The notes under the pieces: model-generated
Seen by the model: only the letters and a program-made list of their open reading frames with translations
Told to the model about the DNA's origin: nothing
The model's database searches: none
NCBI GenBank assembly: GCA_902783445.1
Contig: CACZQX010000069.1
Coordinates: 1 to 26,290, forward strand
Direction: 5' to 3'
Source of the DNA: an uncultured Lachnospiraceae bacterium
GTDB lineage: Bacteria; Bacillota; Clostridia; Lachnospirales; Lachnospiraceae
Length of the DNA: 26,290 nt
Shown here: in pieces, positions 1 to 4,904 of the stretch
Layout of the letters: every line of letters starts with the position of its first letter
Numbering within the stretch: position 1 is the stretch's first letter
Made by a program: the position numbers and the translations under genes

Positions 1-2706
1 ATCCAGATTGTGTTCGATAACCACAACAGTATTGCCGCCATCGGAAAGCTTTCTTAAAATATCAACCAACTTATGCACATCCGCAAAGTGAAGACCCGTT
101 GTCGGCTCATCCAAAATGTAAATTGTCTTACCCGTCGGGCGTTTGCTAAGTTCCGTTGCAAGCTTGATTCTTTGCGCCTCGCCGCCGGATAACTGTGTGG
201 ATGGTTGACCAAGCTTAATATAAGATAAACCTACATCATTTAATGTTTCAATCTTTCTCTTGATTGACGGTACATTCTCGAAAAACTTGACCGCTTCTTC
301 AACAGTCATATTCAAAACATCGTAAATGCTTTTTCCTTTATACTTAACCTCCAAGGTTTCGCGGTTATAACGCTTGCCCTTACATACATCGCAATTTACG
401 TATACATCCGGTAAAAAATGCATTTCAATTTTTAAAAGTCCGTCACCGGCACAAGCTTCACATCTTCCGCCTTTAACATTGAAACTGAAACGTCCCTTTG
501 CATAGCCTCTGGCTTTTGCTTCGGCCGTTGATGCAAATAAATCTCTGATTAAATCGAATACACCTGTATAGGTTGCCGGGTTAGAACGCGGTGTACGTCC
601 AATCGGCGACTGGTCAATGCATATTACTTTGTCCAGTTGTTCTATTCCTTCTATCTTTTTATGTTTGCCTGCAATTGTGTGGGCACGGTTGAGTTTCTTA
701 GCTAAGGATTTATACAAAATCTCATTTACCAATGAACTTTTTCCGGATCCCGACACACCGGTTACACAGGTCATAACCCCAAGAGGAAATTTTACATCTA
801 TGTTCTTTAAGTTGTTTTCTTGTGCGCCTACCACCTTTATCCAACCGGTTGGCTTGCGTCTTTTTTCAGGTACGGGAATCTTAAGTTTTCCGCTTAAATA
901 CTGACCTGTAATCGATTCTTTGACTTTCATTATTTCTTCGGCCGTTCCGCATGCCACAACCTCACCGCCGTGGTCCCCGGCTCCCGGTCCTATATCGATT
1001 ATATGATCTGCAAAGCGCATGGTGTCTTCATCATGCTCTACCACTATTAAAGTATTGCCCAAATCCTTCAACTTCTTAAGGGCGCTTAAGAGTCTGTCGT
1101 TATCTCTCTGATGCAAACCTATACTCGGTTCGTCAAGTATATAGGCAACGCCCACCAGGCCCGAACCAATCTGTGTTGCAAGCCTTATCCTTTGAGCCTC
1201 ACCGCCGGACAAACTGGCCGTAGGTCTTGAAAGTGTAAGATAGTTAAGCCCCACTTCCACCAAAAATCCCATACGAGCTTTGATTTCTTTTAAGATTTGC
1301 GAACCTATAAGCTTTTGCTGTGCATTTAGTTTCTTATCGATTTTTTCAAAGAAATCCTTCAATTCCTCCACGGTCATCATGGAAACTTGATGAATGTTTT
1401 TGTTTGCAACCGTTACCGCCAACGACTCTTTTTTAAGTCTCATTCCGTTACAAGAATCACATGAACTTATTCTCATATAGTTTTCATAGTCTTCTTTTTG
1501 TGACTGAGAGAATGTCTCGCTGTAGCGTTTTCTTACATTTGCAATCAAACCTTCAAAAGCTACCTTATAAACCCCTGCACCTCGCTGACTTTGATAATGC
1601 ACGGTTAGTTTTTTGTCCCCCGTTCCGTAAAGGATAATATCTCTTATTTTTTTAGGATATTTTTCAAATGGTGTATCAAGGTCAAAGCCGTACTCTTCGC
1701 AAAGGGCCACAAGCACCGCATTTGTAAAGCTTCCCTTTTTATTTGCCGACTGCCAGCCTGTAACGATTATGGCTCCTTCATTAATAGAAAGTGACTCATC
1801 CGGAATCATAAGTTCCGAATCAAATTCCATCTTATAACCAAGACCCGAGCAAACAGGGCAAGCACCAAAGGGATTGTTAAATGAAAAACTTCGAGGCTCA
1901 ATTTCCGAAATGCTGATTCCACAGTCAGGGCAGGCAAAATTCATGCTGAAATTAATAGGCTCGCCTCCTATAACATCCACAATCATCAGTCCGTCCGACA
2001 GTTTCATTACACTTTCTATAGAATCCGCAAGACGTTTTTCAATGCCCTCTTTTACGGCAATTCTGTCTACTATTATTTCAATATCGTGCTTTATGTTTTT
2101 ATCAAGCTCTATTTTTTCGTCCAGTTCGTAAAGATTTCCATCCACTCTGGCTCTTACGTATCCCGCACGCTTAGCCGCCTCCAACACCTTTTCATGGCGA
2201 CCTTTTTTTCCTTGAACAACCGGAGCCAAAAGCTGCAATTTACTGCCCTTTTCCAAAGCCATTATAGCATCTACCATTTGGTCCACGGTTTGTCTTTTAA
2301 TCTCTTTGCCGCATTCCGGGCAATGAGGAATACCGATTCTTGCATATAAAAGCCTTAAGTAATCATGTACTTCCGTAACCGTTCCCACCGTGGATCGCGG
2401 ATTACGGTTTGTTGATTTCTGATCGATGGAAATAGCAGGTGAAAGGCCTTCTATATGGTCTACATTTGGTTTTTCCATTTGCCCCAAGAACTGCCTTGCA
2501 TAGGAAGACAGCGACTCCATATATCTTCGCTGACCCTCGGCATAAATTGTATCAAAGGCAAGAGATGACTTTCCGGAACCGCTAAGTCCCGTAAGCACAA
2601 CAAATTCGTCTCTCGGAATTTCAACATCAATGTTCTTCAGATTATGCTCTCTCGCACCTTTAATTTTTATGTATTTCTTGTAAGTTAATTCTTTGTTTTT
2701 CATCAT
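1..2706 (-). CDS. uvrA: Excinuclease ABC subunit A, 3'-truncated by the window edge (not in the ORF track because no stop lies in the window)
   Basis: Manual minus-strand translation from 2706 gives [73 protein letters not shown] (Walker A GLSGSGKS). The same frame reads ...VVIEHNLD at position 1, typical of the end of the second UvrA ABC domain. It lies directly downstream of uvrB. The start could be ATG 2706 or 2703. Confidence 0.97.
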
Positions 2707-2783
2707 TAAAACACTATGCCGCGGCACCCAGGGCATTTGCTCTTTAAAGTGCATATGCCACCGTGTTGAACGTTGAGTGGCAA
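2706..2783 (-). CDS. Candidate 25-aa leader/u[28 protein letters not shown] (TTG start)
   Basis: SD AAGGAG (2796-2791) is followed 7 nt later by TTG (2783-2781). The frame is open to TAA (2708-2706), which overlaps the uvrA ATG by 1 nt (TAATG). Translation is unproven. Confidence 0.4.
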
Positions 2784-2788
2784 GCGGC
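2717..2788. repeat. GC-rich nested palindromic element upstream of uvrA
   Basis: TGCCGCGGCA (2717-2726) is a perfect palindrome. GGCATTTGCTCTTTAAAGTGCATATGCC (2732-2759) is a 28-bp palindrome with 2 mismatched pairs. TGCCAC (2756-2761) pairs with GTGGCA (2777-2782), and GCCGC (2718-2722) with GCGGC (2784-2788). GC is 43/80 over 2711-2790, against an AT-rich flank. Confidence 0.75.
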
Positions 2789-2866
2789 TTCTCCTTTTAT
2801 TGATTTATTATAATTTTTTCCCTCTTAAACAAACCTGTCTATTTATAACCGGCATAATATACAAAG

Positions 2867-4858
2867 CTACTTGCTTTTCATCTTTGCCAGATGCTCTTTG
2901 AGTTCCATCATCTGGTCTCTTAACATTGCCGCAGATTCAAAGTCAAGCTGAGTTGCGCAATGCTCCATTTGTTTGCGTACCTTATTGATTGTCTTTTCAA
3001 GTTCTTTAATACTCATGCTTTCCGGATCTTTTTCAATCTTATCGATAGCATAACTTGTTTCTTTTGATATACTGATAAGATCTCTGACAGCCTTTTTAAT
3101 GGTTGTAGGTACAATACCGTGCTCTTCATTATATTCGGACTGTATCTTACGACGTCTGTTTGTCTCCGAAATCGCATTATTCATGGAATCCGTCATCATT
3201 TCGGCGTACATAAGAACACGTCCTTCCGAGTTTCTTGCCGCACGACCTATAGTCTGAATCAAGGATGTTTCGGATCTCAAGAAACCTTCTTTATCCGCGT
3301 CCAAAATTGCTACCAATGATACTTCCGGTATATCCAATCCCTCTCTTAAAAGGTTGATGCCCACCAGCACATCAAACTTATCAAGTCGCATGTTACGTAT
3401 AATCTCCACACGCTGTAGAGCATCGATATCCGAATGAAGATATTCGACTTTTATTCCCGTTTCCTGCATGTATTTTGTTAAGTCTTCTGCCATTTTCTTT
3501 GTTAATGTGGTAACCAAAACCTTATGTTTTTTCTCGATTTCCACGTTTATCTCAGCGATAAGATCATCCACTTGACCCTTAACGGGTTTTACCGTAACCT
3601 CCGGATCCAACAAGCCCGTAGGCCTTATAATTTGCTCTGCTCTAAGCATTTCATGCTCTGCCTCGTACTTATTCGGTGTTGCGCTTACAAAAAGCATTTG
3701 GTCTATTTTAGATTCGAATTCCGTGAAGTTTAAAGGTCTGTTGTCAAGGGCCGACGGAAGTCTGAAGCCGTAATCCACAAGGGTTGTCTTTCTGCTTCTG
3801 TCACCTGCATACATTCCTCCGATTTGCGGAATCGTCATATGTGATTCATCCACTATAATCAAAAAATCATCCGGAAAATAATCAATCAAAGTATAAGGCG
3901 GAGTGCCGGGAGCTAAGCCCGTTAAATGTCTGGAATAATTTTCGATTCCCGAACAAAAGCCCGTTTCAAGCATCATTTCCACATCGAAATTTGTACGCTC
4001 TTCTATTCTTTGAGCTTCCAAAAACTTGTCTTCGCTCTTAAAATAAGCCACTCTTTCTTTAAGTTCTTCTCTGATTGCTTCCGCGGCTTTCCTTAGTTGG
4101 TCCTGAGGTACCACGTAATGCGAAGCGGGGAAAATTACCACATGTTCAAGTTTTGCCTTAATCTCCCCCGTAAGTATGTCTATTTCCGTGATTCTATCCA
4201 CTTCGTCCCCGAAAAATTCGATTCTTACGGCATCCATGGTTGTGTCCGCAGGTAATATTTCTATTACATCACCTCGTACTCTGAAAGTGCCGCGTTTAAA
4301 ATCCATGTCATTTCTAATATATTGAATGTCTATAAGATTTCTTATTACATCGTCTCTGTCCCTTTCCATGCCCGGCCTTAAGGAAACAGTCATGGTTTGA
4401 TAATCGATGGGACTACCAAGTCCATAAATGCATGAAACGCTGGACACCACAATAACATCTCTTCGCTCCGTAAGAGATGCCGTTGCCGAATGGCGCAGTC
4501 TGTCGATTTCATCGTTAATTGACGAGTCTTTTTCTATATAAGTATCCGTCTGAGGCACATAGGCCTCCGGCTGATAATAATCATAATAAGACACAAAATA
4601 CTCTACCGCATTGTTTGGAAAAAACTCTTTAAGTTCGCTGTAAAGCTGTGCCGCCAAAGTTTTATTGTGCGCCATTACAAGGGTCGGTTTATTAAGTTCT
4701 TTAATAACGTTTGCCATAGTAAATGTTTTGCCGGAGCCCGTCACTCCCAAAAGAGTTTCAAACTGATTGCCTTCTTTGAAGCCTTTTACCAGTTTTTCAA
4801 TAGCCTGAGGTTGATCTCCGGTAGGTTTGTATTCACTATGTAATTCAAAATGATCCAT
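2867..4858 (-). CDS. uvrB: Excinuclease ABC subunit B
   Basis: [10 protein letters not shown] Walker [52 protein letters not shown] and a C-terminal UVR domain. Start moved to ATG 4858 ([10 protein letters not shown]), which has an upstream GAAAGG. Confidence 0.98.
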
Positions 4859-4870
4859 AGTTTTGCCTTT

Positions 4871-4904
4871 CGAACGCTTGTTCATTCATTATAACATATG
4901 TTTT
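4871..4904. promoter_or_regulatory. LexA/SOS (Cheo-type) box at the uvrB promoter, plus a possible second weaker box
   Basis: CGAAC-GCTT-GTTCA (4871-4884) differs by one base from the Firmicute consensus CGAAC-N4-GTTCG. It lies between a minus-strand TATAAT (4893-4888) and the uvrB RBS. ATAAC-ATAT-GTTTT (4891-4904) is a weaker match. Confidence 0.75.

Follow-up and report, generated by a model that had tools for sequence, protein, structure and literature searches.

Translation of the repair gene uvrA in an uncultured Lachnospiraceae bacterium appears to begin behind an inserted sequence. In the 26,290-nt stretch of DNA analysed here (the window, whose positions are used throughout), uvrA lies on the minus strand, as do all features given below unless otherwise noted, and the insert stands between the Shine-Dalgarno (SD) sequence and the uvrA start codon. 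Comparison with other loci and with a sister genome identifies this insert as copy c1 of a repeated, genus-specific cassette family with units of ~50-118 nt. Judged by these alignments, the cassette is a MIRU-like repeat lodged at start codons and equipped with a relay open reading frame (ORF), in a Firmicute variant, and not a uvrA-specific sensor. The combined explanation, in which the insert is a cassette copy and uvrA is translated through a relay of termination and re-initiation, is held with somewhat better than even confidence.

For uvrA alone the significance is modest, as one gut or rumen-type Lachnospiraceae-like genus would express an essential repair gene by way of an inserted leader. 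More generally, a small repeat is lodged exactly between the ribosome-binding site (RBS) and the start codon of several unrelated genes and has not put these out of action, which bears on the capacity of translation initiation to tolerate long structured spacers. The case also illustrates that an insertion, and not selection for regulation, can be the source of "uORFs" (upstream ORFs) and "leader peptides", and cautions against over-reading them as sensors.

The uvrA Leader and the uvrA Start Codon

The genes uvrB and uvrA are separated by a gap of 160 nt. An earlier interpretation made from the letters alone (the sequence-only reading) had stated that the only good SD upstream of uvrA is AAGGAG at 2796-2791 and that none lies just before the uvrA ATG; both statements were confirmed in the sequence, and the motif belongs to a cassette-borne AAAGGAG (2791-2797). 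The remaining geometry given by that reading was found as described: a spacer of 7 nt (AAGCCGC) leads from AAGGAG to TTG 2783-2781, which opens a 25-codon uORF (2709-2783, from TTG 2783 to TTT 2709; open in 7/7 haplotypes), and the uORF stop codon TAA (2706-2708) overlaps the uvrA ATG (2706-2704) as TAATG. A second ATG (2703-2701) follows directly, and from the first of the two the uvrA coding sequence (CDS; 1-2706) runs off the end of the window.

The uvrA frame is open further upstream too, with ATG 2754, ATG 2736 and GTG 2727 as additional candidates, and no SD was found before any of the in-frame start candidates, ATG 2706 included. Gene calls on public contigs place the start at GTG 2727 (956 aa) or at ATG 2706 (949 aa). 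In ~110 relatives UvrA begins 16 residues before the G-A-R motif, exactly matching ATG 2706, and on account of this common N-terminal length ATG 2706 (or 2703) is accepted, from homology, as the real uvrA start. Both substitutions between GTG 2727 and ATG 2706, that is, in the 7 extra codons of the 956-aa call, are first-position changes and nonsynonymous in the uvrA frame (TGG to CGG, CCG to TCG), which counts against an N-terminal extension of UvrA. An extension from ATG 2754 or GTG 2727 was therefore ruled out by homology together with the substitution pattern, and the longer call is a mis-start by gene callers as a consequence of the inserted leader. In 28 other genera the insert is absent and an SD-like motif is mostly located 4-10 nt before the homologous uvrA start.

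A Family of Cassettes Between SD and Start Codon

The window genome (G000) was compared with a sister genome (G001, a congener with ~94% DNA identity) and with seven haplotypes of the uvrA locus, namely contigs with near-identical UvrB or UvrA proteins and one metagenome match from a pattern scan. BLAST with the 101-nt element against its own genome and 400 family genomes returned the orthologue only, in the one congeneric genome; weak matches in C357, C273, G243, G238 and G144 lay inside coding regions and were discarded as chance. The family was searched first with a covariance model built from the seven haplotypes and then with a second model (R2) built from five distinct copies. The haplotype model matched a diverged second copy in G001 and a short copy in G000, diverged copies having surfaced only by this route, and the view of the insert as unique, which BLAST had first suggested, was overturned by them.

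The pattern GCGGCATAGTG-N5-7-ATG occurs three times in G000 and five times in G001; the 399 other family genomes have it 0-1 times, as often as the reversed pattern that served as control. R2 recovers the same 8 loci at 65-128 bits (the uvrA copy at 2704-2820 with 92.6 bits, E 5e-16), and in G001 it adds a weak copy of full length and two forms with internal deletions; in 149 other relatives it gave a single marginal match. By these searches the family is restricted to this genus among the ~550 relatives covered.

All copies are single units in the same orientation, placed between an SD and a start codon and ending 5-7 nt before the ATG. The genes behind them encode UvrA, QueA, a xylose-isomerase-like TIM barrel, a rhodanese lipoprotein, a rubrerythrin-like protein and RACo, and a further copy precedes the gene of a 76-aa carrier-like protein that adjoins an MBOAT-like gene; functionally, these genes are unrelated. 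The notion of the insert as a control device dedicated to uvrA fails on this point, the same cassette being found before unrelated genes and one locus being polymorphic for its presence.

Two copies of G001 lie 500 nt apart (C33, 70149-70267 and 70651-70768) before consecutive genes, the first for a rubrerythrin-like protein and the second for a rhodanese lipoprotein, and in the first of them the stem P1 (see below) is replaced by AUCC/GGAU. Minimal cassettes stand before a RACo-family gene (G001, C11:23655-23721) and before a 150-aa gene (G001, C54:32576-32633), and keep only the SD, a short GUCGCA..UGCGGC-type hairpin, the tail and the ATG. These minimal forms look like natural split-RBS arrangements or products of internal deletion.

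Anatomy and Predicted Fold of the Cassette

Copy c1 (~115 nt; 2712-2826, with the 5' edge at ~2826/2820) was delimited by the R2 match and by alignment with c2-c5, and consists of a 5' arm, the internal SD, the stem P1, a central hairpin and a 3' motif. The 5' arm begins with AAGTTTGAAAAA.. or AAGAGGGAAAAA.., and the termini of the cassette read AAGTTTGAAAAA.. / ..GATGCCTGCGGCATAGTG. The string AAAAGGAGA, which carries the SD, is identical in all copies; GCGGCAUAGUG is likewise common to all and is followed by an A/U-rich tail of 5-7 nt that abuts the ATG. The conserved 3' motif GCGGCATAGTG (2712-2722 in c1) comprises the 3' strand of P1 plus AUAGUG and is invariant in all clear copies. The copies also contain GAUGCCUGCGGCAUAGUG, which can alternatively fold as a small local hairpin. 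The GC content of c1 is 52%, against 24% in the spacer and 38.7% in the genome.

P1, GCCGC(A)/(U)GCGGC, is the only consensus helix of the family. Its 5' strand GCCGC lies at 2784-2788 in c1, where the predicted GCCGC/GCGGC pairing has a probability of ~1. Among the copies it varies by C-to-U changes giving U.G pairs (two copies), by a change on both sides to AUCC/GGAU (the weak c6) and by disruption in c5, with few independent sequences behind these variants; within the uvrA copy alone, substitutions are too few for covariation to be read. P1 forms subterminal inverted repeats, to which c1 adds UCAAUAAAA/UUUUAAUGA. The central hairpin, GGCAU..AUGCC with an inner UGC/GCA stem in c1 (2732-2759), is particular to each copy and differs in sequence among them, that of c2 being a perfect 13-bp stem (z -3.9).

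The sequence-only reading had called the insert structured, a description that stands in part. The minimum free energy of the insert is ordinary (z -0.5 to -1.6), as are the fold energies of c1, c3, c4 and c5 (z -1.0 to -1.6), whereas P1 is predicted with near certainty and the region of the uvrA AUG, with a predicted unpaired probability of 0.21, is more paired than in 97% of shuffles. An outer helix is predicted between UCAAUAAAA, just 5' of the SD, and UUUUAAUGA, which extends across the uvrA AUG, and every haplotype is predicted to fold with this outer frame; the GGAG of c1 is predicted to be unpaired within an internal loop. A scan of the region against Rfam 15 gave only chance snoRNA-like matches with E above 0.2.

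Constraint and Mobility

The check for a conserved frame and stop/start adjacency proposed in the sequence-only reading was made on the relatives, and both are kept in 7/7 haplotypes: no indel or stop codon occurs in the uORF, and its start is retained as well. Six haplotypes have TAATG, while one (L049/L050) carries TAAGGATG instead of TAATGATG, by which the overlap is lost and the second ATG lies 2 nt after the stop. The uORF substitutions amount to V5I, Q6H, H7H, G8A, P18P and C20C, with variable sites at 2/50 first and second positions and 4/25 third positions. In uvrA and uvrB ~20% of third positions, a share close to that in the uORF, and ~0.4% of first and second positions vary, and in the spacer bin 2797-2866 variable sites number 18/70, every one at 2810 or above; first and second positions of the uORF are less variable than this spacer (2/50 vs 18/70, p=0.002).

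The native, AT-rich uvrB-uvrA spacer upstream of the cassette (2827-2866) evolves at about the neutral rate. The ancestral uvrA SD probably decayed within it, and only the G001-type haplotype has an AAAGGA there. Searches with UvrB, UvrA and an N-terminal fragment of UvrA yielded no lineage of 86%-99% identity with usable flank, the single 86% UvrB contig ending 40 nt past the stop codon.

Between G000 and G001, c1 differs at 3/120 positions compared with 15.7% of uvrA third positions. Low divergence of the cassettes relative to third positions suggests that they are under purifying selection where they sit, as would be expected if they now serve as working translation-initiation regions. In the queA pair (G000:C211 and G001:C39) the genes differ at 7% of first and second positions and at 50% of third positions, and the 60-nt cassette c3 at one base (1/60). 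This near-identity against such divergence of queA suggests very strong constraint, recombination or independent acquisition.

The locus of the carrier protein (dltC-like) is empty in G000, where it reads AAAAAGGAGAT-TTTTAAA-ATG with an ordinary RBS, and carries in G001 a net insertion of 108 nt at the exact site, with flanks 97-99% identical. The rhodanese orthologue of G000 has its own plain RBS and the cassette is absent. With a locus filled in G001 and empty in G000, the family has, on this comparison, been mobile since the divergence of the two species, or has at least undergone gain or precise loss. A target duplication at the one filled/empty pair would comprise at most a 2-nt TA. The dltC-like pair constitutes a ready-made natural experiment.

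A more far-reaching proposal, which we regard as possible but less likely than not, is that the cassette is an active, orientation-specific mobile element homing into SD-ATG gaps, which would carry a portable initiation module (SD, clamp stem, relay frame and A/U tail) and in which GCGGCAUAGUG would be the recognition site of a trans-acting nuclease, transposase or RNA-binding factor; it would then be the Firmicute counterpart of MIRUs. If true, such a homing cassette would point to a class of elements, widespread and for the most part undescribed, which live as parasites of ribosome-binding sites and are able to rewire them.

Several other sites resemble parts of the cassette. An ordinary RBS in G000 (ATAAAAGGAGAAGCCGC-GAAT-ATG, C296, ~1501-1517) has 17 nt identical to the 5' string of the cassette, and another (AAAAAGGAGAAGCCGTT-ATGATG, C78, ~449) carries this string as well; the shared strings may be footprints, a preferred target or coincidence. 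A gene of G000 (C382:1792-1802) starts with ATGCGGCATAGTGATTTAAAAAT.., equal to the cassette 3' motif, behind a normal AAGGA RBS, and may represent a truncated copy or chance. In another Lachnospiraceae lineage, over-extended UvrA calls (P0141-P0149) have an in-frame unit of 25 residues (75 nt) immediately before the MEEIKK start, with a tandem duplicate in some of them, which may be another repeat lodged at the start of uvrA.

The Proposed Relay at uvrA and Its Main Rival

Termination followed by re-initiation is the likeliest mechanism for uvrA as far as the sequences allow a judgement, with a probability that we place between even and slightly above even, and a split or standby RBS is its main rival; the two may both contribute. 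The cassette SD would drive initiation at TTG 2783, 7 nt downstream, and the ribosome would translate the 25 codons, melting P1 together with the long-range helix predicted to mask the uvrA AUG. It would then terminate at the UAA within UAAUG and re-initiate at the SD-less uvrA AUG, which would be accessible because termination at UAAUG would leave the masking strand already unwound.

Of the six long or medium copies, three (c1, c2 and c3) have an ORF that is driven by an SD and stops at the gene start or close to it. That of c1 uses the internal SD and TTG, with 25 codons and the TAATG overlap. In c2 the host SD and a TTG at the 5' end of the cassette open 32 codons, and in c3 the internal SD and a GTG open 9 codons; in both, the stop is the UAG of CAUAGUG, 9 nt before the ATG. 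The proposal that uvrA is coupled through re-initiation from the uORF fits c1 in its geometry, in the lack of an SD of its own before uvrA, in the predicted pairing of the uvrA AUG and in the frame kept in seven haplotypes, but the arrangement is not family-wide.

A number of observations weigh against the relay or against the cassette account with which it is combined. The SD-uORF-TAATG geometry is by itself weak evidence, since a start at SD spacing with an ORF ending at the uvrA start arises in 6-8% of dinucleotide shuffles (84 nt from SD to ATG). In about 70% of the long ORFs of the genome, one of the first three start codons comes with an SD core (13% for internal control starts), while ~30% have no SD core at the first starts, and SD-less initiation exists in this genome. 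The SD-driven relay ORF is absent from c4 (which has a three-codon remnant), c5, c6 and m1; as the genes behind these copies are presumably expressed without it, the cassette must permit initiation by another route there, and could do so for uvrA also. Synonymous bias within the uORF, which the sequence-only reading had suggested examining, was found as a lean of the changes toward third positions (4/25 vs 2/50), but the contrast is not significant alone (p=0.09). Where an SD is lacking, re-initiation in E. coli is commonly lower by 60-90%, and overlapping gene pairs of Firmicutes rely heavily on SDs (PMC6728339). As for the cassette, no clear terminal duplication or transposition mechanism was identified, and no autonomous partner or longer relative was found among the 3'-motif matches, in a search that was not exhaustive. 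A search of the whole genome for AAGGAG with a short ORF coupled to a long one returned ~15 mostly spurious cases and was uninformative.

The most serious alternative, to which we give a substantial minority weight, is that the cassette SD serves the uvrA AUG directly, either because P1 loops out ~70 nt (leaving an effective 13 nt) or because the 30S subunit waits on the SD and then slides to the A/U-rich start, the uORF being incidental or auxiliary. What all copies share is the SD, 2 nt, P1, AUAGUG, the 5-7 nt A/U tail and the AUG; P1, the sole consensus helix, is kept with U.G variants and with the both-sides change to AUCC/GGAU in c6. The internally deleted m1 and m2 retain just SD, hairpin, tail and AUG, and c4, c5 and c6, which lack the relay ORF, need a mechanism of this kind. 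In c1, the predicted unpaired GGAG and the P1 probability of ~1 agree with it, and precedent is found in genes 38 and 25 of phage T4 (PMC3014915). On the other hand, the spacing after closure of P1 is 13-15 nt plus a helix, longer than in the T4 cases, and the looped-out structure of ~70 nt far exceeds the T4 hairpins; in energy, the folds of c1, c3, c4 and c5 are unremarkable (z -1.0 to -1.6). The uvrA AUG of c1 is itself predicted to be paired, against direct access, and the third-position bias and kept frame of the c1 uORF are left unexplained.

Regulatory RNA, Sensor Peptide and Frameshifting

A dedicated cis-regulatory RNA is unlikely. In this explanation GCGGCAUAGUG, P1 and alternative pairings would be bound, or switched, by one shared trans factor or ligand, and uvrA, queA and the other genes would constitute one post-transcriptional regulon. 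The strong conservation of the cassettes between the two species relative to neutral sites would fit such a role, as would the alternative pairings themselves (P1 plus GGCAU/AUGCC vs UGCCAC/GUGGCA plus AUGCC/GGCAU), but the downstream genes are functionally unrelated, presence is polymorphic (filled/empty) between close relatives, and the element is found in a single genus with interiors that differ by copy and without an Rfam match.

The idea of the sequence-only reading that a thiol/metal-sensitive or stall-prone Cys-rich peptide adds control to uvrA found no support, and a Cys/His-rich peptide, nascent or released, that tunes uvrA translation by sensing thiol or metal status or by stalling the ribosome is considered very unlikely. 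H7, C11, C17 and C20 are invariant in seven haplotypes, two of the three synonymous changes sit in His and Cys codons, and first and second codon positions are constrained; invariance of this kind fits constraint at the RNA level equally. The CPGCRGIVF tail of the uORF peptide is the cassette 3' motif (..GCCGCGGCAUAGUG..) read in one frame, and the nucleotides that specify the residues in question are conserved in copies which read them in other frames or leave them untranslated; the peptides of c1, c2 and c3 share nothing. A 32-residue stop-to-stop query found no homologue in 1.84 billion proteins (two matches, to repeat proteins, were chance), inspection revealed no known arrest motif, and the element is confined to the genus and has been mobile recently. 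The Cys and His residues are, on this comparison of copies, a by-product of conserved GC-rich cassette sequence and not a sensor. Arrest and sensor leaders such as ErmCL, SecM, TnaC and SpeFL show peptide conservation across homologous leaders, whereas here the peptides differ or are absent depending on the copy.

Programmed -1 frameshifting, in which ribosomes from TTG 2783 would slip at the heptamer U_UUA_AAG (2742-2748, in the uORF zero frame) into the uvrA frame and add ~26 N-terminal residues, deserves the least credence of all. The register of the heptamer is right, the -1 (uvrA) frame into which the shift would lead is open from 2796 onward, and by sequence inspection a GGUGG ends 9 nt upstream and an AUGCC/GGCAU hairpin is possible 5 nt downstream, but this hairpin is weak (5 bp), GGUGG is GCUGG in one haplotype, in-frame heptamers occur in 5-9% of shuffles, the heptamer sits in the copy-specific central hairpin loop, the genome encodes a tRNA-Lys(CUU) that should suppress slippage on AAG, and the downstream substitutions are W-to-R and P-to-S in the uvrA frame and synonymous in the uORF frame. 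With dnaX-type frameshifting the site has in common the slippery heptamer and the open frame, and differs from it in the presence of tRNA-Lys(CUU) and the lack of a strong stimulator. The heptamer is probably coincidental.

Relation to Known Systems

The closest analogue known is the MIRU of mycobacteria (mycobacterial interspersed repetitive unit); MIRUs were reportedly first described by Supply et al. in 1997. Like them, the cassettes are short, apparently mobile repeats at start codons, with several loci per genome and with presence/absence at orthologous sites (dltC-like, rhodanese). For MIRUs it has been proposed that insertion at start codons couples an internal ORF to the gene and so limits the cost of insertion (PMC12548453). 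This likeness holds in part for the cassette, as the stop overlaps the start in c1, falls 9 nt short of it in c2 and c3, and the ORF is absent in c4, c5, c6 and m1. The differences are several: the host is a Firmicute, so that a sequence relationship is not expected; the cassette brings along an SD and a GC stem; overlap of its ORF with the stop codon of the upstream gene is lacking, uvrB ending 40 nt before the cassette; the units are single and not arranged in tandem arrays of the variable-number type (VNTR); half of the copies lack a relay ORF; and copies are located before first genes too, not only between cistrons.

Repeats of the MITE/REP type that are co-transcribed with genes, such as Correia, RUP and ERIC, are known in bacteria. 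The cassette resembles them in being small, palindromic, multi-copy and non-coding, with presence/absence polymorphism, conserved termini, variable interiors and internally deleted derivatives. It differs from them in its very low copy number (3-8), its strict confinement to the SD-ATG gap in one orientation and the lack of a clear target duplication or autonomous partner in a search that was not exhaustive.

Coupling through uORFs is established in bacteria, as documented for Sinorhizobium uORFs (PMC13285730), overlapping gene pairs (PMC6728339) and synthetic bicistronic designs (PMC5995908). The uvrA uORF resembles these systems in having its own SD and a stop that overlaps or abuts the main start, with uvrA lacking a usable RBS. 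Such leaders usually embed the SD of the second cistron, whereas the cassette uORF has none, and the uvrA leader would have been supplied by the insertion of a repeat and not evolved in place. The literature search found no paper linking bacterial uvrA to a uORF or leader peptide.

In T4 genes 38 and 25, hairpins cut the spacing between SD and AUG from 22 to 5 nt and from 27 to 11 nt, respectively (PMC3014915). The cassette shares with these split sites a large distance between SD and AUG, an intervening helix and a lineage-restricted arrangement, and differs in scale, the T4 hairpins being small and leaving 5-11 nt whereas the cassette would loop out ~70 nt and leave 13-15 nt.

Transcription of uvrB-uvrA

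Neither a terminator after uvrB or elsewhere in the uvrB-uvrA gap nor a LexA box within the insert was found, and a candidate promoter in the gap (TATAAT 2812-2807) was rejected, as it is not conserved and reads CATAAT or CAGAAT in other haplotypes. With no terminator and no conserved promoter in the gap, transcription is assigned to the uvrB promoter, where a candidate LexA box of the Cheo type, GAACAAGCGTTC, with a perfect GAAC-N4-GTTC (4872-4883, recorded without strand), is located just after the TATAAT. It is plausible, in agreement with what the sequence-only reading had assumed for LexA, that the uvrBA transcript is under LexA-type control and that the cassette would act only at translation. 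The uvrB CDS (663 aa; 2870-4858) ends at a TAG stop codon (2867-2869) assigned from the sequence and from UvrB homologues, and its true start is ATG 4858-4856 and not the ORF-maximal ATG 4885.

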